Assembly: GCA_001787205.1 (NCBI GenBank)
Contig: MFWB01000008.1
Span: 101,644 to 165,643, forward strand
DNA length: 64,000 nt
DNA from: Candidatus Nomurabacteria bacterium RIFOXYB1_FULL_39_16
GTDB lineage: Bacteria; Patescibacteriota; Minisyncoccia; Phycocordibacterales; UBA9973
Reading direction: 5' to 3'
Program-made: the position numbers and the translations under genes
Part shown: positions 3,194 through 62,433 of the stretch, piece by piece
Numbering within the stretch: the stretch's first letter is position 1
Layout of the letters: every line of letters starts with the position of its first letter
The notes under the pieces: generated by a model
The model's input: only the letters and a program-made list of their open reading frames with translations
What the model was told of the DNA's origin: nothing
The model's database searches: none

Positions 3194-5287
<2,094 letters not shown>

Positions 5288-17201: not shown

Positions 17202-17510
17202 ATGTTAAAAATAAGACTTCAGAGAATTGGTAGGAAGAACGACCCGTCGTTTCGGGCTGTTTTAACTGACTCAAAAAATAGCACCAAGAGCGGAAAATTC
17301 TTGGAAATTTTAGGCACCTACAATCCGAAGGCCGGAGAGAAAAATTTACTCTCGGACAGGATAAAATATTGGATGAGCAAGGGAGCAAAATGTTCAGACA
17401 CGATGCACAATTTCTTAGTGCAGGATAAAGTCATTTCTGGCAAGAAAATAAACGTTTTACCTAAAAAGAAGCCCACAGTGAAGAGGAAGGAGTTGAAAGC
17501 GAAAAAGTAA
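17202..17510 (+). CDS. rpsP: Ribosomal protein S16 with a basic C-terminal extension
   Basis: MLKIRLQRIGRKNDPSFRAV is the typical S16 N-terminus. Confidence 0.9.
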   Translation: MLKIRLQRIGRKNDPSFRAVLTDSKNSTKSGKFLEILGTYNPKAGEKNLLSDRIKYWMSKGAKCSDTMHNFLVQDKVISGKKINVLPKKKPTVKRKELKAKK

Positions 17511-17594: not shown

Positions 17595-17954
17595 ATGGAA
17601 GAACATGATAAGATATTTCTAGAATATGTGGTGAAGGCTCTCGTAGATAATCCGAACGATGTGAAAATTGATCGTACGGTGGACGAGATGGGTGTGCTCA
17701 TTACTCTTACCGTCAATCCTGCCGATATGGGCAAGATCATCGGAAGAATGGGTAACACTGCGAAAGCTATCCGCACCTTGCTCCGCATCATTGGTATGAA
17801 GAACAATGCTCGCGTTAATCTGAAGATCAATGAACCTGCAGGAAGTATGAGACCGGAGAGACCTATGATAGGTTCAACCGGTAGCGGGATGGGCGCTGCT
17901 CCAGCAACTCTAAAAACAGTTGATGAAGCAATGGAAGAATTGAAAGGAATCTAG
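17595..17954 (+). CDS. KH-domain RNA-binding protein (YlqC/KhpA-like)
   Basis: GKIIGRMGNTAKAIRTLL is a KH GXXG loop. The position after rpsP is conserved. Confidence 0.75.
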   Translation: MEEHDKIFLEYVVKALVDNPNDVKIDRTVDEMGVLITLTVNPADMGKIIGRMGNTAKAIRTLLRIIGMKNNARVNLKINEPAGSMRPERPMIGSTGSGMGAAPATLKTVDEAMEELKGI

Positions 17955-18082
17955 TTTCAATAAAAAACAAGCAAAAAACACTCTCGCAAGGGGGTGTTTT
18001 TTGATTTTGACTTTTGTCGCGAAATATGATGTACTGAGAAAAGAATTCACGAGCTCTTCGAGAAAAGAGAGGGAGGTGAGAC

Positions 18083-18304
18083 GTGAGAATGGACGGATTC
18101 AAGATCCCAATCTTGAAAACCAAGGCATCTCAGCGTGTGGAGGGCCTTGAGGTGTATAACGTTCTCGGATATTACCAAGTTGGAGAAGTCCTTCTTGAGA
18201 TTGACGAGAACGATCCCGAAGTTCAGCGGATAGTATCTGAGTTCCTCGCGAAAATTCTTCCACACGTCAAAACGACCAAGCCACAGGACTTGGTCACTAG
18301 CTAG
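18083..18304 (+). CDS. Small hypothetical protein (73 aa) in GC-rich micro-island 2
   Basis: GAGGGAGG Shine-Dalgarno 8 nt before the ATG. Local GC content is far above the flanks. Confidence 0.45.
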   Translation: MRMDGFKIPILKTKASQRVEGLEVYNVLGYYQVGEVLLEIDENDPEVQRIVSEFLAKILPHVKTTKPQDLVTS

Positions 18305-18315
18305 GAGGAGTACTC

Positions 18316-18663
18316 ATGAACCAGGTCGTGAACCCTGAGTGTGATACTCGGGTCATCTATCCTGGCGTCCTTCGGGGCGACAGGATGGAACCCAAGATTG
18401 TCACTATCACCCACAAGCCGAAGCTGACGTTGTCGGGGTGTCGGAAGTGTGGCAGCTTCCGTTACCTCGTAAACGCGCAGCTCGTGTGCTGTCAGACTCA
18501 GACGTCTTGCCCAGACTGTGGATGGACGACGACGGGGTGCGCCGTGTGGGTTGGGTCTCGCGCAGGTCAACCCGTCGAAAGGTCCATCTTCTCCGTGGAG
18601 ATACCCGAGGCCCTGAAGAGGAATATCAGGGAGCGGGAAGAGCAGAAACAGAAGGAGGGGTGA
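18316..18663 (+). CDS. Small Cys-rich (zinc-ribbon-like) protein, 115 aa, in GC-rich island 2
   Basis: AGGAGG immediately upstream. CRKCG ... CC ... CPDCG ... GC cysteine cluster. Confidence 0.5.
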   Translation: MNQVVNPECDTRVIYPGVLRGDRMEPKIVTITHKPKLTLSGCRKCGSFRYLVNAQLVCCQTQTSCPDCGWTTTGCAVWVGSRAGQPVERSIFSVEIPEALKRNIREREEQKQKEG

Positions 18664-18665
18664 GG

Positions 18666-18980
18666 ATGAAGTGTCCTCATGATGGATGTGGGAGTCTTGA
18701 CCTTATCCCCAACCATAAGAACGGGGCGGTCACATGTCTTACGTGTGGGTTCACGTCCTTCCATCCCAACCCCCAGCAGGAGACGATGATGTGCGAAGCT
18801 GCCGAAGTTAGGAACTCTGGAAACCTGTCAGTGGGCGTTCCGGAAGAGCCGACCGGATACGTCGACCTCCCGCCAGGGTTCGGGGCTCTCGGGTACGACG
18901 ACCCGGGGGCCAAGGTGAAAAAGAAGGAGCCCGAACCCCCGATCTTCTACGACGATCTACCCCGCGTTCTCGCGGGGTGA
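18666..18980 (+). CDS. Small zinc-ribbon protein (about 105 aa) in GC-rich island 2
   Basis: GAAGGAGGGG Shine-Dalgarno. KCPHDGCG ... CLTCGF. The track ORF 18438..18980 is the same frame extended upstream; the ATG at 18666 has the ribosome-binding site. Downstream terminator hairpin ggccggc ... gccggcc plus T-run at about 19018-19062. Confidence 0.45.
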   Translation: MKCPHDGCGSLDLIPNHKNGAVTCLTCGFTSFHPNPQQETMMCEAAEVRNSGNLSVGVPEEPTGYVDLPPGFGALGYDDPGAKVKKKEPEPPIFYDDLPRVLAG

Positions 18981-19091
18981 CAATCAGGGCCCGAGAGAGC
19001 CCCATATAATCTCTCGCACGGCCGGCTTCGCTTTCTGAGCGTCGCCGGCCTTCCCATTTTTAATAGAAAATTTTCGTGCCATAATACATAT

Positions 19092-19763
19092 ATGCATTTT
19101 CATATAATCACAATTTTTCCCGAGATGTTTGATTCTTACTTAAAAGAATCTATTCTTGGGCGCGCAACGAGAAACAAGATAATTTCTTTCAATTTTTATA
19201 ATCCTAGAGATTTTATTAAGGCACCCAAGAACAACTATAGACCAGTAGATGATAAGCCCTACGGCGGAGGTCCGGGAATGGTCATGCGAGCCGAACCAAT
19301 TTTGAAAGCGGTAGAAGCCTCCTTAAAAAAAATTAAGGGCAAGAAAGTGTTGATTATTAATTTTATTCCTAGCGCTCCAAAATTCACTACTCCTTTCGCT
19401 AAAATATTTTCTAAAAAATATACGGATATTATTTTAATCTGTGGGAGATATGAGGGGATAGATTCGCGGGTAGAAAAAGTAATTAAAAATTTAAAATTTA
19501 AAATTATAAATTTGTCCATTGGGGATTATGTCCTGACGGGTGGGGAATTGCCAGCGATGGTTTTAGTAGACTCCATCTCTCGCCAGATTCCCGGGGTTTT
19601 GGGCAAATATGAATCCCTAGAAGAAGAACGCGTCTCAAGCAGTGAAGTTTACACTCGTCCCGAGATTTTAAAATATGGCGGGAAAAACTACAAAGTACCG
19701 AAAGTCTTACTTTCCGGCAACCATAAGAAGATAGAAGAGTGGAAAAATTTGACAAAAAAGTAA
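19092..19763 (+). CDS. trmD: tRNA (guanine37-N1)-methyltransferase
   Basis: MHFHIITIFPEMFDSYL, SPOUT knot motifs and GDYVLTGGELPAMV. Confidence 0.9.
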   Translation: MHFHIITIFPEMFDSYLKESILGRATRNKIISFNFYNPRDFIKAPKNNYRPVDDKPYGGGPGMVMRAEPILKAVEASLKKIKGKKVLIINFIPSAPKFTTPFAKIFSKKYTDIILICGRYEGIDSRVEKVIKNLKFKIINLSIGDYVLTGGELPAMVLVDSISRQIPGVLGKYESLEEERVSSSEVYTRPEILKYGGKNYKVPKVLLSGNHKKIEEWKNLTKK

Positions 19764-19972
19764 AAAAGGAGTAAGGTGTTCTGGATTCATTGATTGAGTA
19801 TCGGATGCAATCCTGTGTATATTCTGTTTTTTGTTTTGGGGTATATTAATAGGGTTTTAGCTTAATCATCTAAATAAACCAAGAAGATTTATAGAGAAGC
19901 TAGAGAAAAGCATTTTTCGTCTGTTTTTCCCTGTCATCTCTTTGTTTTTTTCTTTTATTTGGAAAAATAACT

Positions 19973-22900
19973 ATGCAAAAAAGCACAAAGCGTCCGAAGA
20001 AGTTCTTTGGAAGATACAAGAAACCTCTTGTAGAATTTCCAAATTTAATAGAAGCTCAAGTCAAGAGTTTCAAATGGCTCGTAGAGACTGGTATTGGAGA
20101 AGTCTTTAAAGAATTCTCTCCGATTATAGATTACTCTGGAAAAAAGTTTCAATTGGAATTCACTTCTTTTTCTTTAAGTGAGTCCAAAGTAGACGAAAAT
20201 GATTCCAAAATAAACAAACTCTCTTACCAAGGGCTACTGAAAGCGCGGGTAAAATTGACGAACAAAATTTTAGGTACAGTTAAAGAACAAGAAATTTTCA
20301 TGTCGGAAGTTCCTCTAATGACTCCGCACGGTACTTTCATCATCAACGGAGTGGAGCGCGTCATCGTGCCACAGCTAGCGAGAAGTTTCGGAGTTTTCTT
20401 TACAGAGGCGGAGAGCAAGGGTACTAAATATTTCGGCGCGAAAGTTATTCCGGCTCGCGGAGTCTGGATTGAGATAGCTTCTGAAGCGGACGGCGCAATT
20501 TATATAAGAATAGACAAGAAAAGAAAGTTTCCAGCCACCGCGCTCTTGCGCGCTATGGGTTATGAGACGGATGAGGCGATTCTGAAAGCATTTGAAGCTG
20601 ATTCAACCATCAAGGAAACCATTAAAGCATCTCTGGCAAAAGACGGGATAAAAACTCAAAGTGACGCGTACGTTGAGATTTATAAGCGTCTTCGGGACGG
20701 GGATATGGCTACCGCCGATAACGCCAAGGAATTCATTAATTCTTTGTTTACCGCGGAACGCTATGACCTTTCCCCTGTAGGACGATTCAGATTTAATCAA
20801 CGTTTCGGTAAGCCTATGGACGAGACGGAGATGGCTCGTCGTACTATAAATAAAGAAGATTTAGTGACGGTAATTTCCAATATTATAACCTTAAACAATA
20901 CACCGCTTGCCAAGGCTGATGATATAGATCACCTGGGTCAGAGGCGCGTGCGTTTCGTCGGAGAAATACTTCAACAGAAAATTCGCACCGGTATGATGCA
21001 AATCAAGAGAAACATTCAAGACAGGATGTCTATTATTGATGTGGACACTGCGATGCCTATCGCCATCATCAACCAGCGTCCGCTTCAAGCTCGTATTAAA
21101 GAATTTTTCACTACGAACCAACTTTCACAATTTATGGCGCAAGAGAATGTACTCTACGAGATGGAGCACTTACGTACGCTCTCCGCACTCGGACCCGGAG
21201 GTCTCACTCGCGAGCGCGCAGGGCTGGAAGTTCGCGACGTGCATCCTTCACACTACGGCAGAGTCTGTCCTATTCACACCCCGGAAGGCCCGAACATCGG
21301 ACTTATCTTGCACCTTTCAACTTATGCGAAGATAAACGATTTTGGAATTATTGAAACTCCTTATGTAAAAGTTAAAAATGGCAAAATTACTGGCGAGGTG
21401 GTTTATTTAAACGCGCTTGAAGAAGAAAAGTACAACATTGCGCATGCCGGTATTCCTTACGACGAAGATGGGAAAATAACGAAAGATAAAGTGGAAGCCA
21501 GAATTAAGACAGAGCCCGGTATGGTTTCCAAAGACGAAGTTGATTTTATTGACGTGGCCCCCAACCAGGCATTCTCTATAGCGACATCAATGATTCCATT
21601 TCTGGAACACAACGATGCCAACCGCTCACTCATGGGAAGTAACATGCAGAAGCAGGCAGTGCCTTGCGTCTTGCCAGAAATGCCTATAGTGGCAACGGGT
21701 ATTGAAGAGTTGGCATCAAGAGATTCTGGTAGGCTAATTATCTCGGAAGAAGAAGGAGTCGTCTCTTATTTGGATGCTAAGAAAATTGTGGTTAAAGGAA
21801 AAAAGGAAGTCACTTACACTCTGGTTAATTTCTTAAGAAACAACAACTTTGCAGTGTTTCATCAACGTCCGCTAGTAAACGTTGGTGACAAGGTTAAAAA
21901 GGGCGAAGTTCTGGCGGATACTTCCAGTACCGTTAACGGACAGATTTCTCTCGGGCAGAATATTTTCGTGGCCTTTTTGTCTTGGTCTGGTTCAACTTAC
22001 GAAGACGCCATCATTGTCTCAGAACGTTTGGTAAAAAAGAGCAAATTCACATCCGTTTATGTTGAAGAATTTACTTGTGTAGTTCGCGATACCAAGCTCG
22101 GACCCGAAATCACCACTCGCGATATTCCAAATGTCGGAGAACTTAAATTAAAAGATTTGGATGAAGACGGTGTCGTTCGTATCGGGGCCGAGGTTCGTGA
22201 AAACGATATCCTAGTTGGTAAAATTACTCCTAAGGGTGAGACTGAGCTTACTCCGGAAGAAAGACTTTTGCGTTCAATTTTTGCCGAGAAAGCGCGCGAT
22301 GTGAAAGACACATCTTTGCGTATGGAACACGGTAAACGTGGACGCATCATCGGTGTTAAAATTTTCTCCCGTGATTTGGGTCATACACTAGAAGCCGGAA
22401 TCATCAAGAAAATCGTGATTGAAATCGCGCAAATCAGAAACATTTCAGTGGGAGACAAGCTTTCCGGCCGACACGGAAACAAGGGAGTTATTTCTATGAT
22501 TCTTCCAGAAGAGGATATGCCTTACACTGCAGATGGTACACCTATTGATATCATTCTTTCACCTCTCGGCGTTCCTTCTCGTATGAACCTGGGACAGATT
22601 TTGGAAATGCATCTCGGTATGGCGGCTAACAGTCTCGGTTATCAAGCCATTGTGCCTCCATTCTTGGGAGCCAAGAGCGAAGAAATCAAAGAAGAATTAA
22701 AAAAGGCAGGATTGCCGGAAAATGGTAAATTGAAACTTTTTGACGGACGCACTGGAGAAGCTTTCCAGCAAGATATCGCTGTGGGTTATATGTATATGCT
22801 CAAGCTTCACCATATGGTAGAAGACAAGATTCATATGCGTTCTATTGGACCGTACTCTCTCATTACTCAGCAACCGCTCGGAGGAAAGGCTCAAGGTGGA

Positions 22901-33086: not shown

Positions 33087-33506
33087 TTAATTTTTAATAT
33101 ATTTTTTCATTCTCCACTTTCTACCTTTTCCTTTATTCATATTTTTATAAAAAGGAGTGAGCGCGTGACAATTGGGACAGAGTAACCTCAAATTATTTTC
33201 CAGATTGTTTTCAGAATTACCGTCTATGTGATCAACTTCAAGTGGTATCACTCCGGTTAGAGGATGTTTTTTGTGCCAGCCACAAAAGGAACACTTATTA
33301 GCATATTTTTCAAATAAATACTTTTTAAGCCAATTTGCCAAATTTCTTGCGGTTATTCCAATTTCACCACTTAATTTTCCCTTTTTCCATAAATCAACAT
33401 TTGTTCTGTATTCTAAATTACGCTGACACTTATTAGAGCAAAATTTTATTTTATGTCTAACTAAAAGTTTGGTTCCACATCCGGCGCAAAATCTTAAGTT
33501 TTTCAT
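33087..33506 (-). CDS. HNH endonuclease with an N-terminal zinc ribbon
   Basis: CAGCGTKL ... C ... C followed by the HNH core EVDHIDGNSENN ... NLRLLCPNCHA. Confidence 0.75.
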   Translation of the reverse strand: MKNLRFCAGCGTKLLVRHKIKFCSNKCQRNLEYRTNVDLWKKGKLSGEIGITARNLANWLKKYLFEKYANKCSFCGWHKKHPLTGVIPLEVDHIDGNSENNLENNLRLLCPNCHALTPFYKNMNKGKGRKWRMKKYIKN

Positions 33507-49614: not shown

Positions 49615-50132
49615 AAATTTATTATATCACAATTCTTTCTCATTATTTATTATTTTAGGCACAAACTCGACTTACCCCTTGATAAAGATTTAGATGTGTT
49701 TTTCTAGCTTCTCGTTATTTGAAACACCGTGATTTAGAATATTTATAATGCGTAGATAATAGGTGTTAAAATAATTTTTGTCCAAAAAAGATTTATATGC
49801 AATTAACAGTTGATTTAAATAGCGAACCCCCTTCATAAAGCATAACCCATGATACACCATTGCCTTACTTGATAATTCCTATATCAATCAGTGAAGCTCC
49901 GATACTGATCACAAGGCTGGGTGCAAGTCGAACAACATTTTCCCAGCGCTCTTTCATCAATACCTGAACCTCTCATTATTAGCCCTTACTCAAGGCCGTT
50001 TGCCTTATACACGGATATCAGTAGCGATATAAGGTTTCGTTGGAGTTTTTGATTTGAGATCCCCAAAAACAAAGATTTGTTAATGTTTTCCGTAACTTAA
50101 CCTAACTTAACGCAACATAACTTAACATAACT

Positions 50133-50351
50133 TTATTTTGAGAGAGAAGTGAATTGTCTTTCAACAACTAACTTTTCCACCTGTTGAATATATTTTAGCA
50201 TAAAAATAAACAAAAAACAAGCGAAGTTTTTTACATCAGAAATATATTGACGATTTGTATTAAATTTTTCCGCAGCTTTTTCGGATGCTTTACCTTCATT
50301 TTTATCTTTAAGGTAGTCAACTTTTTGACTACCTTTACTACCTTCTGACAT
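50133..50351 (-). CDS. Small hypothetical protein (72 aa)
   Basis: ORF in AT-rich spacer between island and flank. Confidence 0.25.
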   Translation of the reverse strand: MSEGSKGSQKVDYLKDKNEGKASEKAAEKFNTNRQYISDVKNFACFLFIFMLKYIQQVEKLVVERQFTSLSK

Positions 50352-50440
50352 ACGTTTTTTGGTTTCTTTTTCTAGTTCTACCTCTAGACGAATAGGCCAT
50401 GATTTAGCTTACCCAAAAAGTTGGGGAAGCTTTGTGGACC

Positions 50441-50719
50441 TTAAGGGAATATCCTTTTAAATAAATCTGGGTAACCCTCACTAAGTTCATTGCTTAAGCT
50501 TCTATAAAAATCATTCCATTCGTTTTCCGTCATTTTATTTGTAGACTTACCTGTTTTTACAGATATAGCAAAACCACTCCTACAATCAATTGAAATATTT
50601 AATTCCTTCTCTTTATTCATTCGTCTTACCATTGAGAAAAGACGACCTGCGTGGGTATGTGGCACTAAAGGATATTCTTGTTCTATTTTTTTAAGTTGTT
50701 CTTTAAGTTCTTCGTTCAT
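50441..50719 (-). CDS. Small hypothetical protein (92 aa), second gene of a two-gene cassette
   Basis: ORF begins 8 nt after the upstream ORF's stop. No family recognised. Confidence 0.35.
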   Translation of the reverse strand: MNEELKEQLKKIEQEYPLVPHTHAGRLFSMVRRMNKEKELNISIDCRSGFAISVKTGKSTNKMTENEWNDFYRSLSNELSEGYPDLFKRIFP

Positions 50720-50727
50720 AAATTTTT

Positions 50728-50997
50728 TTAATTAAAGTTTCTAATATAATTAGGATCATCTTTTTTACGTTGTATTTCCAAATGTAACCATAGTGCAGTA
50801 GAAAAATAATAAAGACGTGGATTTTTTATAACACGCTTAGCTTCAAGTGGTGTTATATGCATGATCACATTATCAACACGATAATAATATTTTCCTTCGT
50901 CTCTGATAACCTCAGCTTTATATCTAAAAAGGTCTCGACTATGAATCCTAGAAAGATTACCTTCAATTAACCTAATGTTTAAGTTAACTATATGCAT
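50728..50997 (-). CDS. Small hypothetical protein (89 aa), first gene of a two-gene cassette
   Basis: ORF only. Possible toxin-antitoxin-like pair, by size and arrangement alone. Confidence 0.35.
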   Translation of the reverse strand: MHIVNLNIRLIEGNLSRIHSRDLFRYKAEVIRDEGKYYYRVDNVIMHITPLEAKRVIKNPRLYYFSTALWLHLEIQRKKDDPNYIRNFN

Positions 50998-51244
50998 AAA
51001 AAAAATTCCTACATTAACTTAATAATGAAGGAAAGATTTCTTGTGTGGACTAAACACAAAACTCATCTTTCCTGACACTTGCGTGTCTGGTTGGATTTAG
51101 CACCTTACAATTGCAGGTTGCTGTGGGGTCATCGAGCCAATTCTCTACCACCACTCTTGATACAAACTATTCAATTGTACATACATTATAGCACTATTTT
51201 ATAAATTTTGCTAAATTTCCTAACACTTTATCTCCGCCCTCACA

Positions 51245-52597
51245 TTATTTTTTTATTCTTACTGTAACTAAATATTTAATAGGATCTATTGTTACACCTG
51301 GTATCTTGTTTGCGAATGGATTTGGCATTTTATATATAAATGGTGTTTCAGATAGATAATCAAAGACAATATATAAATGATAATTTTTGTCCTTCCTAGC
51401 AATTGTTATTTCATTTTCAGAGATAAAAAATCTAAAGGTAATAGCTGGAATATTTCTAACAGCTTTAACTTCTATGTGTTTTTCTGACCCATCAAAATCA
51501 AAAGATAATACATCATAGCCCAAAGTGTCATCCTTGAGAGAAACTTGTTCAACTTTATTTACCATCTTAGAATAATTTTTATTTAACTCTCCAATTTCAT
51601 GTTTTATAACAATTTTTTCAGCAAAATCTCCAGCTGTTCTGTTATTGCTATCTCGGAGTTCAAAATCAATTTTTTGTAGCCTAGGGGATATTTTTCTTCT
51701 TGTTTTTACACCTAGATCAGCATCTTCATCAATTTCCATTTCAATTATCTGAGGTTTTATATTTGAGATATCGGGAAGTTTTAACCCTCCAGTTATAGTA
51801 TTAACTATTTCTTCTTGTTCTTCTGTCGTTTTTTTCTCTAAGCTTTCGATAACCCTTAGATAGTTAGGGTTAATGGTATAAATCTGCCACCCATTGTTTG
51901 TATTTAAATAATTAAAATATCCACTATCACTAAAATCTCGTAGAGAAAAACTCTCTAAAATAATCTCAATGTCTTTTTTCGATAAATTAGATGTAATTTT
52001 TTCACCTTCCTTTTTAATATAAGAAGAAATTAGAAGCATGTCAAAAAATCTCTTAACGTTATCTGAGAAATCATCAATACTTAACTCTTTACTTTTTTTA
52101 TCTAAAATATCTGCATAAGTAGTTTTGTTTTTAGAATTTCTGTATTCATGTATTAAATCTACAACAAAAGAGATTTCATTTTTATCATTTATCCAGCACA
52201 CAAATAACTTATATTCATCAAAAGATATATATTCTAAAGAGTGCAAAAGAGTTAACAACACCTCCATCGGAGCAATTTTAATTGATAAATTATCGTTTAA
52301 TTTTGGACAATCCAAATATACTTTCATTATCTGCTCATCTAAAATCTTTTGTTTATAAAGAGAATTTAAAAAAGTTTCTCCAGCGTTTGAAATTTGTAAA
52401 TTGTCCCCACCAAGATTAACTATCAATCCAAGATATCTCAAAGTAATACTATTACGCGTCGTAAGTTCGTGAAAATCATTAGTCAAATCATTATAGATTT
52501 TATTTACGGCATCAATTGTATATTCTTTCTGTTTAGCTTTCTTCCAGAAATTCTTAGTTCCTTTGTTATTTAAATATTTTTTATATTCTTCAATCAT
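51245..52597 (-). CDS. Putative restriction endonuclease with a C-terminal DUF3883-like PD-(D/E)xK domain (450 aa)
   Basis: C-terminal block DFAEKIVIKHEIGE ... LGYDVLSFDFDGSEKHIEVKAV ... FFISENEITIARKDKNYHLYIVFDY matches the DUF3883 pattern (D ... E-V-K). The start overlaps the C5-MTase stop by 4 nt. Confidence 0.6.
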   Translation of the reverse strand: MIEEYKKYLNNKGTKNFWKKAKQKEYTIDAVNKIYNDLTNDFHELTTRNSITLRYLGLIVNLGGDNLQISNAGETFLNSLYKQKILDEQIMKVYLDCPKLNDNLSIKIAPMEVLLTLLHSLEYISFDEYKLFVCWINDKNEISFVVDLIHEYRNSKNKTTYADILDKKSKELSIDDFSDNVKRFFDMLLISSYIKKEGEKITSNLSKKDIEIILESFSLRDFSDSGYFNYLNTNNGWQIYTINPNYLRVIESLEKKTTEEQEEIVNTITGGLKLPDISNIKPQIIEMEIDEDADLGVKTRRKISPRLQKIDFELRDSNNRTAGDFAEKIVIKHEIGELNKNYSKMVNKVEQVSLKDDTLGYDVLSFDFDGSEKHIEVKAVRNIPAITFRFFISENEITIARKDKNYHLYIVFDYLSETPFIYKMPNPFANKIPGVTIDPIKYLVTVRIKK

Positions 52598-53706
52598 AGT
52601 TTTAAAACTTTGCGAATCTTTAACGCAATAGATTGTGCTAATAATGGAGGTACTGAATTTCCAATTTGTATACCAACTGAACCCCTACTACCGTAAAAAA
52701 TAAAATCATCATTAAAAGATTGTATCCGAGCTGCTTCACGAGGTGTTAGCGCTCGATGTTGTAGTGGATGAGTTACGCGACCCACAGAAGGAGTATCGAA
52801 CCTTGTGGTTATTGTATATGCAGGTTTATTCCTATTAATTCTTCCAAATGCTCCACTATGTATAGACTTTGTTTGTAGCGCTAATGGTAAACTTGATCTT
52901 CCTTCACCTTCTTTAATGCTTTTAAGTATCTTAATTATTCTAGGATCATGTTTAGTGGCTTGGTGGTTATATAGCTTTTTACTTTTTCCTCGTCTTTCTT
53001 TTTGATATTGAGTAAGATTTTTATTAAAAGCATACTCAGATTCAAACTGTCCTAAGCCTGCTGATACCTTTGGTAAATCTAAAATCGTTTCTGCAACAGT
53101 TACGTATGGTCTTTGTTTTTGAGGACCATGTGTCTTGTCTGGAAAAAAATCTTCGGGGTCTATCCCTATCCTATTACCTATAAATACTGCTCTTCTTCTT
53201 AATTGAGGAACACCATAATCTGCAGCAAGTAAAACATGGACCTTGGTTTCATATCCAATTTCTTTAAACTTTTTTATTATTTCATTTTTTACAGTTCCTC
53301 CGTGGATATTTAGCATCGCTGCTACATTTTCCATAACAAATATTTTAGGCTTGACGTCTTTTACTACCCGAATAAATTCCTTAAAAAGTTCATTACGTGG
53401 ATCATTTAAAAACGCACCATCATTACGTATTCTGCGACCTGCCATACTAAAACCCTGGCAAGGTGGCCCCCCAACAACAACACAAATATCTTTTTCTCCA
53501 TTCAATAATTCTTTCGAATCTACTTTGGTTATGTCTTCAACGATCATTTTTGTTCCAGGATGATTTTTTATGTAAGTATTAGCAATTTCTGCATTATATT
53601 CATTCGCAGACACTACATCAAAACCAGCTTTCTTAAAACCCACAGAAATACCACCCACTCCTGCGAACAGATCTATTATTTTTAGTTTACTTTTCTTGCC
53701 AGCCAT
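52594..53706 (-). CDS. DNA (cytosine-5)-methyltransferase
   Basis: Motif I DLFAGVGG, motif IV GGPPCQGFS, ENV, QLRRRAVFIG and C-terminal GNSVPP. Confidence 0.92.
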   Translation of the reverse strand: MAGKKSKLKIIDLFAGVGGISVGFKKAGFDVVSANEYNAEIANTYIKNHPGTKMIVEDITKVDSKELLNGEKDICVVVGGPPCQGFSMAGRRIRNDGAFLNDPRNELFKEFIRVVKDVKPKIFVMENVAAMLNIHGGTVKNEIIKKFKEIGYETKVHVLLAADYGVPQLRRRAVFIGNRIGIDPEDFFPDKTHGPQKQRPYVTVAETILDLPKVSAGLGQFESEYAFNKNLTQYQKERRGKSKKLYNHQATKHDPRIIKILKSIKEGEGRSSLPLALQTKSIHSGAFGRINRNKPAYTITTRFDTPSVGRVTHPLQHRALTPREAARIQSFNDDFIFYGSRGSVGIQIGNSVPPLLAQSIALKIRKVLKL

Positions 53707-55294
53707 ACTCTTGTGATTTATTTTTTTTATAATTAAAGTTGTTTTTTAATAAATTTTCTATATTTGTAACTTCACCTTCTTTATTAGAATACAAATTATT
53801 TTCAACAATAAAAGGTATCAGTTTCTCATACAAAGAATCAGAAGTCAGATAACCATTATTTTTTTCTATCCAAGATTGAACCTTTCTTGCAATATACTTC
53901 TCACCACCCTCGTTGTTTAATTTTTTTTCCTTTGCTTTTACTTTCGTGTTTTTTATAAAATTATAAACAAAATCACCCCTCAGTGTATTGTTTCTATTGA
54001 GTCCCTGTGTACCAGATGCAACAGCCTGTTCCTGATAAACAACGTTTACAAGATGAAAACCAGCACTAGTCACGGCATCCATTACAGCCTTCCAAATATT
54101 TAGATTTCTATTATGGAAAGTAAACGAGAGATATTTTTCATCTTTTAAAACTCTATATAATTCAGCATAGACTTTTTTCATTCTTGATGAATAATCTTCG
54201 TATTTTTTATTACGATATGGATCATAAATGATTTCACTTTCATAATTTACCTTATTCCTAAGCCACCCATTCCAAAACATACTTAACCCAAAATAAGCAA
54301 TGCTATCACCATAAGGTGGATCGGTAAATATATATGAAACGGATTCCGATTTAACGTTTTTTAGATTAGTAGCATCAATGTTAAAGATTTGAGCATCCTT
54401 TGAGTTAAATATTCCCGCTACTTCTTGTTTACCTTTTTTAATTTTATGGAATCGATGCTTAAAGCTATTAAAAATATTTTTTTCTGTATGAATTTTTGGA
54501 GCCCATAATTTACTAATAACCCACCCTGACTTGCCATTAACTGATTCGAGATTACCAGGTATCATTTTAGAAACGTTTGGCAACATAGAAGTAAAACATA
54601 AAAGTATTAGATTTTTAACTTTCTGGTCATTAATTTCATCTATATCTTTAATTATTGAACCGAGCACCACCAATGCACGATCTGTAAAAAATTCATTCAA
54701 CCTACTTTTTCCATTTCTCTTAACAAATTTTAAAATTTCATCTTTTGGATAGAAGATTTTATTTTCCTTATCTAATTTATGGAAAACCTCTGTTGCTTTT
54801 TTAAAAACTTTCTGGTCATACAAGTCTACATTCTTTATGAACTTACCACAGCTATGACATAATGCTCTAATTTTTGAAAATTCTTCGTGATCCCAAATCG
54901 AATTTTCAAAGGCTGTAATTCCTCCACACTTAGGACATTTAGTATTATATAATTCAATAAATTTTTTATGATTCTTTTCGTATATATAATCAAATACTTT
55001 TTCAAATTCTTCTAAGTTAACGTCATTTATCGTATTTTCAGTAATAAAACAAGCCATAGGATTTAAATCTATCCCTATCGCTTTACGATTATTTTTAATT
55101 GATTCAATTATCACGACCCCACTTCCCATAAATGGATCAAGAATCGTCTCTCCTGGCTTTGAAAAATTCAAAATATAGTCACTCACCACATTGTGTGGTT
55201 TTCTCCCCCAGTATTTATGCATCATGTAGTGAGTTGGGTGAGTTTTTGCGGTAATGTTTTTATTTATTTTATTCATACGAATTAAACGTAACAA
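53687..55294 (-). CDS. DNA amino-methyltransferase (N6-adenine or N4-cytosine; DPPY family) with an internal Cys4 zinc ribbon
   Basis: N-terminal SAM-binding block HPT ... ILDPFMGSGVVIIESIKNNRKAIGIDLNP. Catalytic TDPPYGD at about residue 325. CPKCGG ... CHSCGK in between. Overlaps the C5-MTase start by 20 nt. Confidence 0.85.
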   Translation of the reverse strand: MLRLIRMNKINKNITAKTHPTHYMMHKYWGRKPHNVVSDYILNFSKPGETILDPFMGSGVVIIESIKNNRKAIGIDLNPMACFITENTINDVNLEEFEKVFDYIYEKNHKKFIELYNTKCPKCGGITAFENSIWDHEEFSKIRALCHSCGKFIKNVDLYDQKVFKKATEVFHKLDKENKIFYPKDEILKFVKRNGKSRLNEFFTDRALVVLGSIIKDIDEINDQKVKNLILLCFTSMLPNVSKMIPGNLESVNGKSGWVISKLWAPKIHTEKNIFNSFKHRFHKIKKGKQEVAGIFNSKDAQIFNIDATNLKNVKSESVSYIFTDPPYGDSIAYFGLSMFWNGWLRNKVNYESEIIYDPYRNKKYEDYSSRMKKVYAELYRVLKDEKYLSFTFHNRNLNIWKAVMDAVTSAGFHLVNVVYQEQAVASGTQGLNRNNTLRGDFVYNFIKNTKVKAKEKKLNNEGGEKYIARKVQSWIEKNNGYLTSDSLYEKLIPFIVENNLYSNKEGEVTNIENLLKNNFNYKKNKSQEYGWQEK

Positions 55295-55337
55295 TATTTG
55301 TTATCACACAATAGATAAAAAATTGATTCAATATCAA

Positions 55338-57812
55338 TTACCGCTCTTGTTCATGATAACTTAAAATATCCTTATCTGAGTATAACATATTTAAGTACAA
55401 TTCTGGAGCATTTTCTGTATAAAGAATGAGTTTTCCTGAATAATAAAGCTCCTTAAACTTTTTCACCCTTCCCCTAACTTCAGTTATATATTCTGGCCTA
55501 ATTTTTATACCGTTTTTGTCTTTTTCGAGATATTTATTATAATGAACGATTCCATAAAATCTTGGGTCAATATGATTCTTTGTTTCAAGAAGTTTTTGGA
55601 CCTGATGTCTTTCTTCGTCTTCTCTAAATCGTAATATTCTTTCTACAACTTCCTTTGATTCAGTGTGCTCTTTTGTGATTGCTAAAAAAGTATTAAATTC
55701 AAATTTGCTAATAAATGAGTCCGAACCATAATCATCTAGTAATTGTATTAAAACATCATATATAAATAAAAATGGATATACTTTAAAATCTTTAAAAGAA
55801 ACACGTTTTGTTGATTCAATATATTTATTATAAGAACCATAAATTGGATTCCAATACAATATTTTTTCAAGTTGTAACGTAAGAATGTCTTGATAAATAT
55901 CCACATCTGAGAAATCTTTTGTCTTTTTACAAATTTCTTCAAATGAAATTGTCGGCTTGAGTGGAGATTCAGCTGATATAAAACCACTGATCTTGCTTAA
56001 CATTAAAGCACGAAAACCTGCTGTCATATTTTTACCAGGATATTTATTATTAACAATCTTTTGTATTTTTTCTATAAATTCTTTTTCACCTATATTTGGA
56101 TTATCTTTAATAATTTTAATACCCTCAAAATTAACTTGAAAATACTGATTCTGTTGCCCACGTTTCCAATATAAATTATCTTTTGTCCACTTATCTAAGT
56201 ATGTTGAATACTCTCTCCATTCTTTTGCAATTACATCATTTCTTATATCTTTCGAATATACAACTTCATTGCTTTTAAATATCTCAACAACTTCAGAATC
56301 AAAAATGACTTCACAACCATTTAAATCATAGACAAAAAGATCTTTCCCATCTTTGTGAATCTTTTTAAGTCCTCTAACCCCATTTTTTATATCAAGTCCT
56401 TCAAGAATTAAATTTGCAGTACGATAATTCCCTATGAAATCAAGAATCAAAACATTTTCTTTTTTAGGAGCAACACGTAAACCACGACCCATATGTTGAA
56501 TAAATATTGTTTTTGATTCTGTGGGCCTTAAAAATAATAAACAAGAAACATCGGGAATGTCGACACCTTCGTTGAACATATCTACAACAAAAGCCACCTG
56601 ACATTTGCCATCTCTAAAATGTTTTATTAATAAAGTTTTATCTTTATCTTCAACTCCTTCAAGCCCTAGGCTACGAGAATGTACGGCAATCGCATTAATA
56701 CCTGCAGCCTTAAATTTAGTAGCGCATCTTTCAGCATGTTCTATAGATGCACAAAAACCTATAGTTTTTCTATCACCAACAACTTCTTTGAATTTTTTTA
56801 AAATGGCTTGATCTCGTTCATCAATCAAAAGATGCTTATTAAGGTCCTTAGTATCATACTTAAATCCATTAAAATATATGTCGGAATAATCAATACTATC
56901 TTTAAATCCAAAATATTGGAAAGGTACTAAATAACCTTGCTCTATGGCCTGTTCCTGTCCCATCTCAAATACAACATTATTGTTATAAAATCCTAATATA
57001 TCTTTTCGATCCATTCGATCTGGTGTTGCTGTTAATCCTAGAAAAAATTTTGGTTTAAAATAGGAAAATATTAATCCATAAGTAGGTGCAGCAGTATGGT
57101 GTGTCTCGTCTATAATTATGTAATCAAAATAATCTGGAGAAAAACTTTCAATATGTTTCTTTTTACCCAATGTTTGTATAGACGCAAATAATATTTTTTT
57201 ATCTTTCTCTTTCTGTTTTCCATTATAAAAACCAAGGTCATTTTTTCTATCAGGAAACACTCGCTCGAATGATTCTTTGGTTTGCTTAAGAATTTCATTG
57301 ATATGGACAACAAAAAGTATCTTTGAGGCTTTAGTATCTTTTGCATCTAAAGCAGACAATATCGTTTTACCTAAACCTGTTGCAAGTATTGCGACAGCTC
57401 TATCTGATCCGTTTTCCCTTGTTTTATTAAGATTAACAAGTGCCTTTTCTTGAGCTTCGTGTGGTTTAATTTCTTTTCCTCTCTTTAAATAAAGATTAAA
57501 AAGCTCTTCGTCTGCTATAAATTGTCTTCGTAAAAAGTATTTTACTTTTTCTTTATCTTTTGCAATTAAGTCACTACCAATAGTTATTGTTTTAAGTAAT
57601 AATTGATTTGTGCTTATTAATTGACCAGTCCCTTCTTTACTTTCGTTGAAATTTATTAAATAACTGGCATAATCTGTTTTTATCTCTAACAATGCAACAT
57701 CACCGTCGGTGATGTTTGTAATGTGTTTTTTAAAATTTGTACTTAAATCGTCAAAAAGAATCTTGAGGAGATTTTTTAAATTTATATTTTTAATATCAAA
57801 AAGTGAATTCAT
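55338..57812 (-). CDS. SF2 DEAH-box helicase or translocase with a possible N-terminal PD-(D/E)xK-like module and a 330-aa C-terminal domain of unknown function
   Basis: Motif I ATGLGKT, II IIIDETHH, III GLTATP, V VDMFNEGVDIP, VI QHMGRGLR. N-terminal DGDVALLEIKT is a nuclease-like motif at low confidence. Confidence 0.85.
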   Translation of the reverse strand: MNSLFDIKNINLKNLLKILFDDLSTNFKKHITNITDGDVALLEIKTDYASYLINFNESKEGTGQLISTNQLLLKTITIGSDLIAKDKEKVKYFLRRQFIADEELFNLYLKRGKEIKPHEAQEKALVNLNKTRENGSDRAVAILATGLGKTILSALDAKDTKASKILFVVHINEILKQTKESFERVFPDRKNDLGFYNGKQKEKDKKILFASIQTLGKKKHIESFSPDYFDYIIIDETHHTAAPTYGLIFSYFKPKFFLGLTATPDRMDRKDILGFYNNNVVFEMGQEQAIEQGYLVPFQYFGFKDSIDYSDIYFNGFKYDTKDLNKHLLIDERDQAILKKFKEVVGDRKTIGFCASIEHAERCATKFKAAGINAIAVHSRSLGLEGVEDKDKTLLIKHFRDGKCQVAFVVDMFNEGVDIPDVSCLLFLRPTESKTIFIQHMGRGLRVAPKKENVLILDFIGNYRTANLILEGLDIKNGVRGLKKIHKDGKDLFVYDLNGCEVIFDSEVVEIFKSNEVVYSKDIRNDVIAKEWREYSTYLDKWTKDNLYWKRGQQNQYFQVNFEGIKIIKDNPNIGEKEFIEKIQKIVNNKYPGKNMTAGFRALMLSKISGFISAESPLKPTISFEEICKKTKDFSDVDIYQDILTLQLEKILYWNPIYGSYNKYIESTKRVSFKDFKVYPFLFIYDVLIQLLDDYGSDSFISKFEFNTFLAITKEHTESKEVVERILRFREDEERHQVQKLLETKNHIDPRFYGIVHYNKYLEKDKNGIKIRPEYITEVRGRVKKFKELYYSGKLILYTENAPELYLNMLYSDKDILSYHEQER

Positions 57813-57815
57813 GGA

Positions 57816-60002
57816 TTATTTATTATCCAGGGTCTCACTAGCAAAAATTGCAGTGTGCATATTTTTAGGAGTAAGAATTACTGGCCACCAGAATGGTGAA
57901 CCCATCCACCCTTGTTCTTCTTTGCCATTTACTCTAATTAACATTAATACTGGAATGTCATCTGCTATCCTTTTAGCAATAGTAAGAGCCACTTCTCCAG
58001 TACCAGATCCAGCATCATCTGTAAATCTGCCATCTGATTTACAACGAGATAAATTACTATCAGTTCTCACCACAACTCCAACTTTCCCGTTTTGTGAAAT
58101 ACTGGCCGAATTTTTTGATAAATGTTCTATACTTGCTTTGAAAGCCTTAACATCCCATTCATACCCATTTTGTTCAGAAATAAAAGTTTTTTTTATTTTA
58201 TCTAAAATAGAAAGGGATTGTTCAACTGAAATCAAAAAATAATCCGATGTTGATTCAGCTTGTAAGCCTAAAATTTCTTTATCTAAATCCTCTATATCTT
58301 TTTTTATGTTACTTTTATAACCTGTCTGGAAACCAATAGGTAAAAGTCTTTTGTGGGGTTTAAGAGTAGTTATGCTAGAAAGCATTATTTTATTAGGCGA
58401 ACAAGGTACCAGTTTATCACTCGTGTCTTTGCGTATAAAATAAATACCATTATTATGTGAACCATTTAGAAAAGCCTCCCTTAGTGCATTATCAAATTCA
58501 TGTATGCGTTTCATTACTTCATAAATACTACGAGTCGTATATAAACGAGTTACTGCTAAATCCTCTTTAGATCTAGCTCCATACATGCGACAGTGCTGTA
58601 AGACAGTGTCTTGCTGAAATTTTTTAGGATTTCTACCATAGTAAAAACCTATCATGTTTTTAATCGTAATCCCACGATCCAAAATTTGACCTCCTATAAA
58701 AATATTTAGTGGAGTTCTTAATCTAAGCTGTCCCTTACTATCCAAGAGCGCTTTTACATCTTTATCTGAATTAACTTTTTCTACTACAAGCATTCCTTTT
58801 GTTAAAACATCTGATACTTCATGCAATACAACAGAAAAAATTGGTAACTGCAATCCAGAAAGTTCCACGGAAGGTTTTAAATCATTGTATGCTTCCTCAA
58901 CTAGAACATTAAATAATGCTTGGTCCTCTTTTGCAATCCTAACTAGCTCTTCGTTAAGTTTATTTACAACTTCCTCTTGCCAATTATGAGAATTTCTAGA
59001 TTGTTCAGTGTGAATTAGAAAACTGTAATTTTCTTGCTTTTCTCCTTTATTTTCTTGTTGAATGCGACGGATACTACCACCAACAATAAAATTCATTATC
59101 GAATTTCTAATTGTTCTTGTAGATGGACTAGTAAAAACTTCTTCTATTTTAAATGACCTGCGATCTGCCCGCTTAAGAGTCTTTCTTACTTTCAAAATTT
59201 CCAACTCTTCAATTGGAACCTCTTTATAAACGTGAAACGCAGTCGTTCCTTCTTCCTCACTTTCAATAAAATAATAATCACCTCCTACATAATCTTTATG
59301 AATAGGGACCAACACAGTGAAAGCTGGTCGTTTCGGTAGAAAAAGCGATTCTGAGTCTTCACTATCATCTGATTGTAAATATAACGAATATGGAGTGGCT
59401 GTGACCTGTAATAAATCAGATCGTTTAACTGTGTTTCGTATATCGTCTATTTGTTGAGCAATTTTTCCTTGTTCAATTGAGCCACTTTCTTTTTCTTTAT
59501 GAAAGCTAATACTTGCAAAATCTGCTTCGTCGTCAATTATAAGAATCTTTTTATTTTTTAAATCGGGATAAGTAGTAGTAAGTGTGCTTAATACATGTCT
59601 AAGATTATTAGTTTCTTTCTTTGCAACAATAATCAACTTTTGACTTAACTCATATGGCACCATATTTTTGGGGAAAAGCATGATGTCATGTATTTGAACT
59701 TTACTATCCTCCTCAAATACTTGAAAATCTTCATGTAGTCGTTTTAGTGTCTGTTCAGTAAGTGGCTTAGTGCCTTTTGTAAGTATTATTGTAATATCGT
59801 AATCATTATCAAATGCCAAAGCCATTACACCTAAAAAAGCACGGGTTTTCCCACTCTGCACCTTCCCAAGCAAAATACCAGGCTTTTTCAAGTTTGTATC
59901 AGAATCAATCAGTTTAACAACAGTTTCTTCTATACAACTTTTTAAAGAGTCGTCATCTTTGCGGTTATTAGTTAGAGTATTATAAAAATATCCTTTTTCC
60001 AT
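57816..60002 (-). CDS. SF2-like P-loop ATPase (Z1-domain-like), 728 aa
   Basis: Walker A GKVQSGKT, DEAD-like IIDDEADFAS, TATP, and motif-VI-like QHCRMYGAR. The stop lies 4 nt before the helicase start. Confidence 0.7.
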   Translation of the reverse strand: MEKGYFYNTLTNNRKDDDSLKSCIEETVVKLIDSDTNLKKPGILLGKVQSGKTRAFLGVMALAFDNDYDITIILTKGTKPLTEQTLKRLHEDFQVFEEDSKVQIHDIMLFPKNMVPYELSQKLIIVAKKETNNLRHVLSTLTTTYPDLKNKKILIIDDEADFASISFHKEKESGSIEQGKIAQQIDDIRNTVKRSDLLQVTATPYSLYLQSDDSEDSESLFLPKRPAFTVLVPIHKDYVGGDYYFIESEEEGTTAFHVYKEVPIEELEILKVRKTLKRADRRSFKIEEVFTSPSTRTIRNSIMNFIVGGSIRRIQQENKGEKQENYSFLIHTEQSRNSHNWQEEVVNKLNEELVRIAKEDQALFNVLVEEAYNDLKPSVELSGLQLPIFSVVLHEVSDVLTKGMLVVEKVNSDKDVKALLDSKGQLRLRTPLNIFIGGQILDRGITIKNMIGFYYGRNPKKFQQDTVLQHCRMYGARSKEDLAVTRLYTTRSIYEVMKRIHEFDNALREAFLNGSHNNGIYFIRKDTSDKLVPCSPNKIMLSSITTLKPHKRLLPIGFQTGYKSNIKKDIEDLDKEILGLQAESTSDYFLISVEQSLSILDKIKKTFISEQNGYEWDVKAFKASIEHLSKNSASISQNGKVGVVVRTDSNLSRCKSDGRFTDDAGSGTGEVALTIAKRIADDIPVLMLIRVNGKEEQGWMGSPFWWPVILTPKNMHTAIFASETLDNK

Positions 60003-60206: not shown

Positions 60207-60384
60207 AGGATATTAGTTACTCTTCAAAATTCACACCCTCTCTCATCTTCTGCAAGATCAGCATTACTTCTGGGTTGTCTGGAATATCTATCTCACCGCA
60301 TTTAGGACACTTAGTCTCACAGCAAGGGCAATAGTTAAAACTACACTTCTTACAGTCCACAGGTTTTATTTCAATAGGAGGCAT
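60207..60384 (-). CDS. Small zinc-ribbon protein (about 55 aa; MPPIEIKPVDCKKCSFNYCPCCETKCPKCGEIDIP...). Coordinates approximate to within about 10 nt
   Basis: GGAGG 6 nt upstream of the ATG. Cysteine pattern CxxC ... CPCC ... CPKC. Sits directly upstream of the defence operon on the same strand. Confidence 0.35.
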
Positions 60385-61811: not shown

Positions 61812-62433
61812 AACGTTAAATATAATTAGTTAATAATCATGACGACCAACATGTGTGAAGCGTTGTAGTTATTTATAATTCGCTTCACTTAAATAGTTTT
61901 TATTTGTTATTATTTATATTTAAATAAGGGGTATGGGGTGGTGGTCTTGAATTGTTGCAGTGAGGTATTCTGGATCCAAGGTGATACATCCATACAGGGT
62001 TCCGCGAGCCTAAAACTAGAAAGGTACACAATTGACCACATTGAGGTTACTGGTACGAGTAACCAATTTCAAGATGTTATTTTAAAAGGGTTATTCGGGA
62101 TCGTGTTTTGCGCAAAGGCACATAGGGGTTGTCTTGAATCAAATCTAATATATAAATTCAATGTGAGTAAAAAATTTCTAATTTTCCACAGCTTTTTTGG
62201 GTTGTATAATTAGCTCAATGAGTGCTATCATATATGTACAATCCTAAACCAGAAATGGCATGGTATATAAGAAATCCCACGCGAGTAAAAACGGCTACAG
62301 AAGTCGCAACTACTCGCGTGGGTCTGTGCATCGAAAGGTGCATAGGATAGTCTCGAAAGAGATTATCGCGATCTTATGTAGCCTTTTTTGCTACCTCTTT
62401 GATTATATTATTAGTTAAAACCCACGCGAAAAT

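Follow-up and report, generated by a model that had tools for sequence, protein, structure and literature searches.

The DNA analysed here (the window) is a stretch of 64,000 nucleotides (nt) of contig MFWB01000008.1 from Candidatus Nomurabacteria bacterium RIFOXYB1_FULL_39_16, in which a GC-rich island of about 1 kb (18010-19065) with three small open reading frames (ORF1 to ORF3) lies between the gene of a KH protein and trmD. We interpret this island as a horizontally acquired, self-contained accessory mini-operon, similar to a phage moron, that occupies a cargo slot between these two core genes, and we give this interpretation a probability of roughly 0.65. The architecture of the cassette and its origin are well supported, and its acquisition fits the finding that the island is absent from most relatives. 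What the three ORFs do biochemically is a far more tentative matter; most plausibly they act in conflict between mobile elements and the host, or in regulation, and not in ribosome maturation.

Composition, genes and transcription layout of the island

The original prediction described a GC-rich segment of about 1 kb in AT-rich DNA, which is what we found: the GC content is 0.551 at 18010-19065 and 0.593 in the core at 18300-19050, as against 0.385 for the whole window. Among all segments of 1056 nt the island ranks top (z = 3.5), the next best elsewhere reaching 0.494, and the compositional step is sharp at both of its borders. Three ORFs on the same strand lie between the KH gene and trmD, and their sizes of 71 or 73, 115 and 104 amino acids (aa) agree with those first proposed (73, 115 and about 105 aa), as does the strong Shine-Dalgarno (SD) sequence before each. 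The features of the locus are as follows, the SD motifs being read from the sequence:

17202-17510: rpsP, ribosomal protein S16 (Pfam S16, 7e-16)
17595-17954: gene of a KhpA-type KH protein (Pfam, 7e-21)
17972-18003, plus strand: predicted intrinsic terminator that closes the rpsP-KH unit and marks the left edge of the slot; 14-bp hairpin and T-run
18001-18030, plus strand: promoter-like site of the cassette; TTGATT, 18 nt, TATGAT, with 9 of 12 consensus matches
18071-18079, plus strand: SD of ORF1, GGGAGGTGA
18083 (GTG, 73 aa) or 18089 (ATG, 71 aa) to 18304, plus strand: ORF1, acidic, no cysteine
18303-18308, plus strand: SD of ORF2, AGGAGG
18316-18663, plus strand: ORF2, 115 aa, basic, 8 cysteines, charged C-terminal helix
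18651-18657, plus strand: SD of ORF3, AAGGAGG
18666-18980, plus strand: ORF3, 104 aa, acidic, starting 2 nt past the ORF2 stop
19020-19060, plus strand: predicted cassette terminator and right border of the insert; GGCCGGC-loop-GCCGGCC (19020-19050), then TTCCCATTTTTAAT
19078-19091, plus strand: extended -10 of trmD, TGcCATAAT, 6 nt 5' of the trmD ATG at 19092; no SD
19092-19763: trmD (Pfam, 4e-38)
19973 (start): rpoB

All three ORFs show coding-type GC periodicity, with values at the three codon positions of.59/.27/.57 for ORF1,.53/.48/.73 for ORF2 and, for ORF3,.51/.47/.62 in its N-terminal part and.73/.44/.75 in its C-terminal part. GC at third codon positions (GC3) spans 0.57-0.74 in the three ORFs and stands at 0.74 in ORF2 and 0.69 in ORF3, compared to a mean of 0.36 +/- 0.11 in 41 long ORFs of the window. 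An index akin to the codon adaptation index is 0.53 for ORF2 and 0.60 for ORF3, the minimum of the 41 host ORFs being 0.61. Both ORF2 and ORF3 harbor two closely spaced cysteine pairs about 15-25 residues apart: ORF2 has a zinc-ribbon-type core, C42xxC45...C65xxC68, plus C75, and ORF3 an N-terminal zinc-ribbon-type motif, C3x4C8...C24xxC27, followed by a tail rich in Pro, Gly, Asp and Glu. Two ORFs had been credited with a CxxC...CxxC pattern, a description that fits ORF2; ORF3 is of zinc-ribbon type as well, but its first knuckle is Cx4C and not CxxC. An additional 49-aa ORF called by gene finders (18001-18150) was rejected, because it lacks an SD, overlaps the terminator and the promoter and is not intact in L007, a related contig described below.

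Along the locus, the order reads KH terminator, promoter-like site, a leader of roughly 50 nt, three close SD-led ORFs, GC-stem terminator and trmD -10. The hairpin at 17972-18003 has a folding energy (dG) of -18.4 kcal/mol (z -5.8; 0 of 200 shuffles as stable), and equivalent hairpins come after KH in relatives whose site is empty. The site at 18001-18030, which is overlapped by TTGACT at 18007-18012, probably works as a promoter; its block has the pattern TTTGACTTTT...TGATATAAT, and TTTGACTTTT followed by a -10 is found at the cassette starts of the window, L007 and L011. At the other end, the anticipated GC-stem terminator is present as the hairpin at 19020-19050 (dG -23.4 kcal/mol, z -3.7), with a T-rich tract from 19056, starting 5 nt downstream. 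A consensus terminator scan missed this hairpin, the loop of which is 17 nt long. The extended -10 of trmD is kept in both empty and occupied sites (junctions of 18 relatives compared), and it may well act as a promoter that yields a leaderless trmD mRNA.

The island had also been thought to interrupt the operon and to be co-transcribed with the ribosome biogenesis genes. This layout speaks otherwise: co-transcription with the ribosome genes appears unlikely, because a predicted terminator (17972-18003) precedes the island, the island has a separate promoter-like site and its own predicted terminator (19020-19050), and trmD has its own -10. As we picture it, the cassette would be transcribed alone, apart from the ribosome genes.

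The use of SD sequences separates the island from its host in the same manner. While a strong SD precedes every ORF of the GC-rich cassettes, those of the relatives described below included, a 4-mer SD core at -20 to -4 precedes 0 of 43 long ORFs of the window. In related loci a 4-mer SD was counted in 19 of 223 cases and a 5-mer in 4 of 223, frequencies that we judge to be close to chance, no expectation having been computed; host starts were taken as the first ATG, and individual cases may be wrong. To judge from these counts, SD usage adds a third, independent sign that the island is foreign to those given by GC and codon usage, and the contrast between SD-less host genes and SD-led genes of GC-rich cassettes could serve as a simple marker of foreign DNA in these genomes. 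The sequence of the host genes suggests that initiation is leaderless or SD-independent. Many host ATGs were seen 6-9 nt past a TATAAT-like hexamer (e.g., the starts at 3203, 12691, 17134 on the minus strand, 19092 and 35750 on the minus strand, and starts in loci L009-L047). In line with this, Tsurumaki et al. 2022 (PMC9297842) report that no anti-SD motif could be detected in roughly half of Parcubacteria, and the contrast touches on whether ribosomes with this reported loss still use SD-led messages.

The KH-trmD slot and its cargo in related genomes

We compared the locus to those recovered in a trmD-based scan of one genome per species, which yielded 80 loci, almost all from Patescibacteria, the closest being labelled Candidatus Nomurabacteria or Paceibacterota, and mapped S16, KH, TrmD and RpoB on them. 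The closer relatives commonly have the order rpsP-KH-trmD-rpoB. Both KH and trmD were present in 66 related loci, and in about 40 of these a gap of 3-130 nt without rimM separates the two genes; the spacer of such an empty site is made up of a terminator hairpin, TATAAT and the trmD ATG.

These empty sites bear on the claim that the island sits where rimM should be. That rimM is absent between KH and trmD was confirmed, using as a positive control the Firmicutes locus L082, in which a 180-aa RimM lies between KH and trmD (Pfam RimM 1e-24, PRC barrel 1e-16): tblastn with this RimM recovered a second Firmicutes locus, L087, and found no match in the window or in any Patescibacteria locus. Likewise, ORF1-3 matched neither RimM (PF01782) nor a PRC barrel (PF05239/PF24986) in hmmscan at E <= 1. 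RimM is reported to be missing in most genomes of the candidate phyla radiation (CPR; PMC6744442) and to be nearly absent from the CPR (PMC12641178). Since rimM is missing across the Patescibacteria loci and is reported so for the CPR, its absence is a phylum-wide trait and the island is not a stand-in for RimM; the notion of a place where rimM should be does not survive the comparison with about 40 relatives in which KH and trmD lie close together without rimM.

It follows that one of the proposed roles, in which one or more of the small zinc-ribbon proteins replace RimM in 30S maturation and are co-expressed with rpsP, KH and trmD, is very unlikely. The adjoining genes are indeed ribosome-related, and ORF3 bears a sub-threshold resemblance to S27e (Pfam E 0.08, PDB E 0.7; S27ae in NCBIfam, E 0.15), but similarities this far below threshold are typical of any zinc ribbon. 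With RimM absent across the CPR, empty-gap relatives included, there is nothing to replace here; moreover, the ORFs are species-restricted orphans without RimM or PRC-barrel similarity, and the predicted terminator and separate promoter-like site uncouple them from rpsP-KH. The likeness between RimM and the island ORFs is confined to genomic position, between the KH gene and trmD as in L082 and L087, whereas they differ in sequence, size and domain make-up, the island is a predicted separate transcription unit, and the empty-site relatives have no such gene either. As the RimM-substitute idea fails, the ribosome-biology angle falls away.

In 17 related loci the KH-trmD gap exceeds about 390 nt, and its contents form two classes. 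One is host-like, being AT-rich and without SD; the other is GC-rich and SD-led, and comprises seven cassettes in Nomurabacteria-like genomes (the window, L007, L009, L011, L017, L022 and L023). The cargo was as follows:

L045, host-like class: HicA toxin and DUF7387 partner
L032, host-like class: NYN-domain protein
L062, host-like class: Bro-N protein
L024, host-like class: 709-aa secreted protein
L048 and L081, host-like class: membrane proteins
L009, GC-rich class: 106-aa multi-CxxC protein
L022:4657-6001, GC-rich class: 1.34-kb insert, GC 0.56 vs 0.42 for the locus; two small CxxC proteins and a TSCPD protein
L011:5050-6003, GC-rich class: two tandem GC-rich cassettes; proteins of 130 aa (N-terminal hydrophobic helix) and roughly 75 aa

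The search for the same insert in relatives, which had been suggested as a check, thus found most sites empty and some with other cargo, with L007 as a diverged variant of the island. Elsewhere the TSCPD domain makes up the C-terminal end of class II ribonucleotide reductases; in L022 it forms a stand-alone protein of 218 aa (Pfam 3e-13) with a C-terminal zinc ribbon, encoded by a gene of GC3 0.86. Small ORFs of raised GC with at least two CxxC motifs were confined to this site in the 873 kb of related DNA examined, setting aside ribosomal L32 and L33 and obvious noise. The ribbon core of ORF2 aligns with the small proteins of L009 and L022, with five invariant cysteines (hhalign probability 53%, P 1.3e-4). 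In a rough neighbor-joining tree occupied and empty sites are interleaved, and the species of the window is sister to L009.

The closest variant, L007, is a contig of 751 nt that encodes P0002, the homologue of ORF2. Its first 65 nt are 89% identical, over a 66-nt alignment, to window positions 17997-18062, which cover the T-run, the promoter block and the leader. Past this shared beginning, L007 has a first ORF (55 aa) that from its ninth codon on is unrelated to ORF1, a second that is homologous to ORF2 and a third that encodes a different CxxC...CxxC protein, and a strong SD precedes all three, the non-homologous parts included. Between ORF2 and its L007 homologue dN/dS is 0.46, the five indels are all in frame and six cysteines are conserved, among them C42xxC45/C65xxC68. 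This comparison supports ORF2 as a genuine gene under moderate constraint and suggests that modules have been exchanged around it; ORF2 would then be the conserved core, and ORF1 and ORF3 its exchangeable partners.

A second informative case is L011, where each of the two tandem cassettes starts with a copy of a 35-nt promoter, TTTTGTTTGACTTTTTATA(C/T)AAAAGTGA(T/C)ATAATA, the copies being 94% identical, and has at its end a GGCCGG...CCGGCC hairpin with TTTTAAT behind it. The predicted promoter of trmD is itself a weaker, third copy. The promoter block of the window island is homologous to those of L011 (about 72% identity to both), and its terminator has the same stem and TTTTAAT, though the ORFs of the two loci are unrelated and those of L011 have no family match. 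This hairpin pattern occurs five times in the 873 kb of related DNA, three of them at the cassette ends of the window and L011.

Signs of an integration mechanism were sought around the island. There is no tRNA within 14 kb and no integrase-like gene among the genes called within 8 kb on either side, the flanks being core genes. A possible target-site duplication, a 10-11-nt repeat CTCTCGCA(A/C)GG at 17981 and 19011, was rejected as being at chance level for the region. Of the properties of a genomic islet, deviant composition and patchy absence in relatives were found; mobility signatures and a donor were not.

Origin of the cassette and competing explanations

That the island could be an assembly chimera or contamination, with foreign GC-rich DNA mis-joined into an AT-rich CPR contig, is effectively refuted. 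The sharp compositional step at both borders would agree with such an artefact, as would the fact that beyond this species no homologue links the ORFs to Patescibacteria. Nevertheless, look-ups with the exact ORF2 sequence and with the KH protein returned 17 and 22 contigs, respectively, all sharing the KH-island-trmD-rpoB order with 99.4-100% identity across both borders. Different samples and the output of two assemblers (IDBA-type scaffolds and MEGAHIT k141) are represented among these contigs, as are two NCBI genomes, GCA_000994345.1 and GCA_000995945.1. The original prediction had named a misjoin or contamination as what would overturn it; instead, both joins recur in >20 contigs from independent assemblies, the diverged L007 opens with the same left-border sequence, and analogous inserts lie at the same site in relatives.

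Leaving aside positions disturbed by indel offsets, strain variation in the island amounts to three synonymous polymorphisms, one Y65F replacement, one stop-loss and one 6-nt in-frame deletion in ORF2; two of the synonymous changes, Y65F and the stop-loss at 18978 fall in ORF3. The stop-loss was observed in the L004 (= L090) contig, in which T>G at 18978 turns the ORF3 stop into a predicted 365-aa in-frame ORF3-TrmD fusion, and may be a minor allele or an error. We did not retain this fusion as a feature of the locus, since the frame would be open across the 111-nt spacer by chance with an estimated probability of ~0.17.

The protein products were compared to sequence collections by a word-indexed search of 5.8 billion protein clusters (ORF1-3) and, for ORF2 only, an exhaustive HMMER profile search of 1.84 billion representatives. 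In the clusters ORF2 matched only P0001 (98%, with a 2-codon in-frame deletion) and P0002 (64%, L007), ORF3 had no homologue, and the sole match of ORF1 was its own NCBI entry, 100% identical (hypothetical protein UU10_C0049G0006, Parcubacteria group bacterium GW2011_GWF1_40_6). The HMMER search of ORF2 gave nothing real beyond the known relatives; two extra matches, P0004 and P0005, were dismissed as tandem-repeat or eukaryotic zinc-finger proteins with many weak stretches.

Searches against Pfam, PHROGs, PADLOC, NCBIfam and PDB sequences yielded nothing significant for ORF1-3. ORF3 showed only sub-threshold generic zinc-ribbon similarities, such as that to S27e given above, and with best zinc-ribbon E-values of 0.08-0.22 in Pfam no curated zinc-ribbon family reached threshold. 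A match of ORF1 to the designed repeat protein 7rdr was treated as spurious, as no stretch passes alone. Phage and plasmid searches by tblastn and blastn and three scans of viral contigs gave no match, and metagenome DNA scans with the conserved left border and with the conserved 3' end of ORF2 gave 0 hits each. AlphaFold2 models of ORF2 and ORF1 had a confidence score (pLDDT) of 37 (from a 3-sequence alignment) and 46, respectively, and were unusable. The family searches that had been proposed for the three peptides therefore came back without a family, phage, plasmid or structure match. Of the suggestion of a high-GC donor, for example the host of an episymbiont, the foreign composition stands, but the donor is unsupported, with no homologue in the cluster, phage, plasmid and viral collections.

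The cysteine pairs of ORF2 and ORF3 resemble those of known small zinc-ribbon proteins (S27e, L32, TFIIB/TFS-type ribbons, MqsA-type antitoxins), though the similarity is sub-threshold and nothing in the libraries searched corresponds to the sequence outside the ribbon. The products may be small zinc-dependent binders of nucleic acid or of another protein, and they join a pool of small orphan zinc-ribbon proteins with possible roles between CPR bacteria and their hosts or phages.

One functional subtype of the preferred interpretation would make the island a toxin-antitoxin or a phage-defence or anti-defence module. In relatives the slot is occupied by a HicA-toxin pair (L045) or by NYN and Bro-N proteins, and the island itself is a compact, coupled, strain-variable three-gene operon with exchangeable ORF1 and ORF3 around a conserved ORF2. 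We nonetheless consider this subtype improbable: the sole defence-model match is the weak one of ORF1 to HEC-01A in PADLOC (E 0.009, 13 bits), there is none in Pfam, PHROG or NCBIfam, and no toxin fold is recognisable, the structure models being unusable.

Since GC-rich islands in AT-rich genomes often mark structured RNAs, we also weighed the possibility that the island is mainly a structured non-coding RNA or functional RNA element, with the ORFs as by-products of stop-poor GC-rich sequence. Folding of the 898-nt span gave a z of -4.9 (20 shuffles), and other reading frames contain ORFs that overlap these. A C(UUCG)G-capped hairpin at ~18356-18387 inside ORF2, where it encodes YPGVLRGDRM, is kept in L007 with one compensatory flanking pair (U-A to C-G), a two-sequence comparison that has no covariation power, and stretches of 18-30 nt of ORF2 are identical to L007 at every codon position (18 nt at the hairpin). 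A further point, which also counts against the interpretation that we favor, is that 200-nt windows over the 3' part of ORF1 and ORF2 have z of -3.4, -3.7 and -2.9 with dinucleotide shuffles. On the other hand, the whole-span z is inflated by the mixing of regions of different GC, the ORF3 region has no excess structure (z +0.5 and +1.3), and no Rfam 15 family matched the island at gathering score, the only two hits being at chance level (E 0.6-0.8). The coding signals are also at odds with it: GC periodicity in all three ORFs, a well-placed strong SD before each, also in the non-homologous parts of L007, ORF2 indels relative to L007 and P0001 that are all in frame, a dN/dS of 0.46, and strain polymorphisms that are mostly synonymous. 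We accordingly rate an RNA of this kind as quite improbable.

An explanation closer to our own is that the island is an old, vertically inherited and fast-evolving locus of a Nomurabacteria subclade, repeatedly lost, in which selection has kept the GC content and the SD sequences. The window species and its sister L009 are both occupied by a small Cys-rich protein, L009, L022 and ORF2 have a CxxC...CPxC...C core in common (hhalign P 1.3e-4), the promoter and terminator blocks are shared with L011, and the island is fixed in the species. Against this, long residence should have let the GC drift to the level of the host and should have lost an SD that the host does not use, cargo ORFs show no relationship between genomes save for the generic zinc-ribbon core, occupied and empty sites are interleaved on the tree, and a module has been replaced in L007. 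Taken together, this makes vertical inheritance an unlikely account.

Several observations count against the horizontally acquired mini-operon that we favor. The insert is flanked by no mobility gene, tRNA or convincing direct repeat. Within the species the island is fixed and near-invariant, with no empty allele among the contigs, and recent mobility is thus unsupported. Homology of the ORF2 zinc-ribbon core with the small proteins of L009 and L022 is suggestive only. No ORF has a donor, phage or plasmid homologue in the clusters and collections searched, and because of this the case for horizontal origin is built from composition, SD usage and patchy distribution only. The promoter and terminator of the cassette are predictions, the AlphaFold2 models of ORF1 and ORF2 provide no fold evidence for any function, and a host ribosome without anti-SD, if real, would put the translation of ORF1-3 in doubt.

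As for how the cassette arrived, we propose that its arrival or exchange would have taken place by homologous recombination through the conserved borders and flanking genes, that is, KH, its terminator and the promoter block on the left, and the terminator block, the trmD promoter and trmD on the right. This is suggested by the lack of an integrase, tRNA or target duplication together with the fact that relatives share the borders around unrelated cargo. If the borders do mediate exchange, genes would be captured at this site by recombination, with no need for an integrase. Lying between two core genes, the KH-trmD slot is a specific and easily surveyed place at which such DNA accumulates.

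Three known systems resemble this arrangement. Phage morons were reportedly described by Hendrix and colleagues as autonomous units of promoter, gene and terminator, deviant in base composition, that lie inserted between neighboring genes of related genomes. Similarly, the island has a predicted promoter, genes and an intrinsic terminator, a deviant GC content, flanking genes that are adjacent in relatives and cargo without a role in the flanking functions; unlike a moron, it lies in a CPR chromosome between core genes, has three genes where a moron usually has one, and shows neither evidence of a nearby prophage nor a phage homologue in the phage and viral collections searched. Integration hotspots and genomic islets also carry varied cargo at one site (here toxin-antitoxin, NYN, Bro-N and TSCPD proteins and orphans) and are often empty, and the highly conserved core genes KH and trmD could support homologous recombination. 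The island differs from them in being only 1 kb, without integrase, tRNA or direct repeats, and in that one cargo class shares promoter and terminator blocks and a GC-rich, SD-led style.

Finally, integron arrays are likewise made of small, mostly orphan ORFs in exchangeable units, and L011 has tandem units with repeated junctions. Integron cassettes are usually promoterless. Here each unit has its own predicted promoter and terminator, no integrase gene was seen in the DNA inspected, and the repeated junction of L011 is a terminator and promoter and not attC, attC-type structure not having been searched for.

A bolder generalization is that the slot is an integrase-free site at which GC-rich, SD-dependent mini-operons on a shared promoter and terminator chassis are swapped and also stacked, as in L011, and that these carry essentially the only SD-led genes of a lineage in which the resident genes are without SD motifs and the 16S rRNA may be without the anti-SD. 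We regard it as a speculative and rather doubtful extension. Were it true, it would imply repeated recent import of DNA into one site from SD-using donors, such as the host of the episymbiont or its mobile elements, or alternatively that small zinc-ribbon proteins of a private class are translated under a regime of their own.

Other features of the window

Downstream of the island, the spacer between trmD and rpoB (19764-19972) is structured, with z -4.5 at 19800-19999 and z -2.7 for the whole spacer, and relatives differ greatly in its length (about 110 nt to 3.9 kb); it could represent another variable site or the leader of rpoB. Upstream, within the RNase R gene on the minus strand, the segment 16295-16751 has a GC content of about 0.50 and encodes a Pro/Ser/Gly-rich insertion, PPRPSGTPPSQGE; the corresponding region of the gene is GC-enriched in many relatives.

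Further along the window, a block of 10 kb on the minus strand (about 50000-60000) has a GC content of 0.29-0.33, below the rest of the window, and is possibly another compositionally distinct region. Two RNA elements score above their Rfam gathering score, a SAM riboswitch at 51060-51166 on the minus strand (61 bits) and a LOOT RNA at 62241-62367 on the plus strand (52 bits). Two other cysteine-rich ORFs of host-like composition were noted, both on the minus strand: one of 55 aa, rich in CxxC, at 60217-60384, and one of 139 aa at 33087-33506, in which an HNH-like motif, HIDGN...CPNCH, was recognized by eye.

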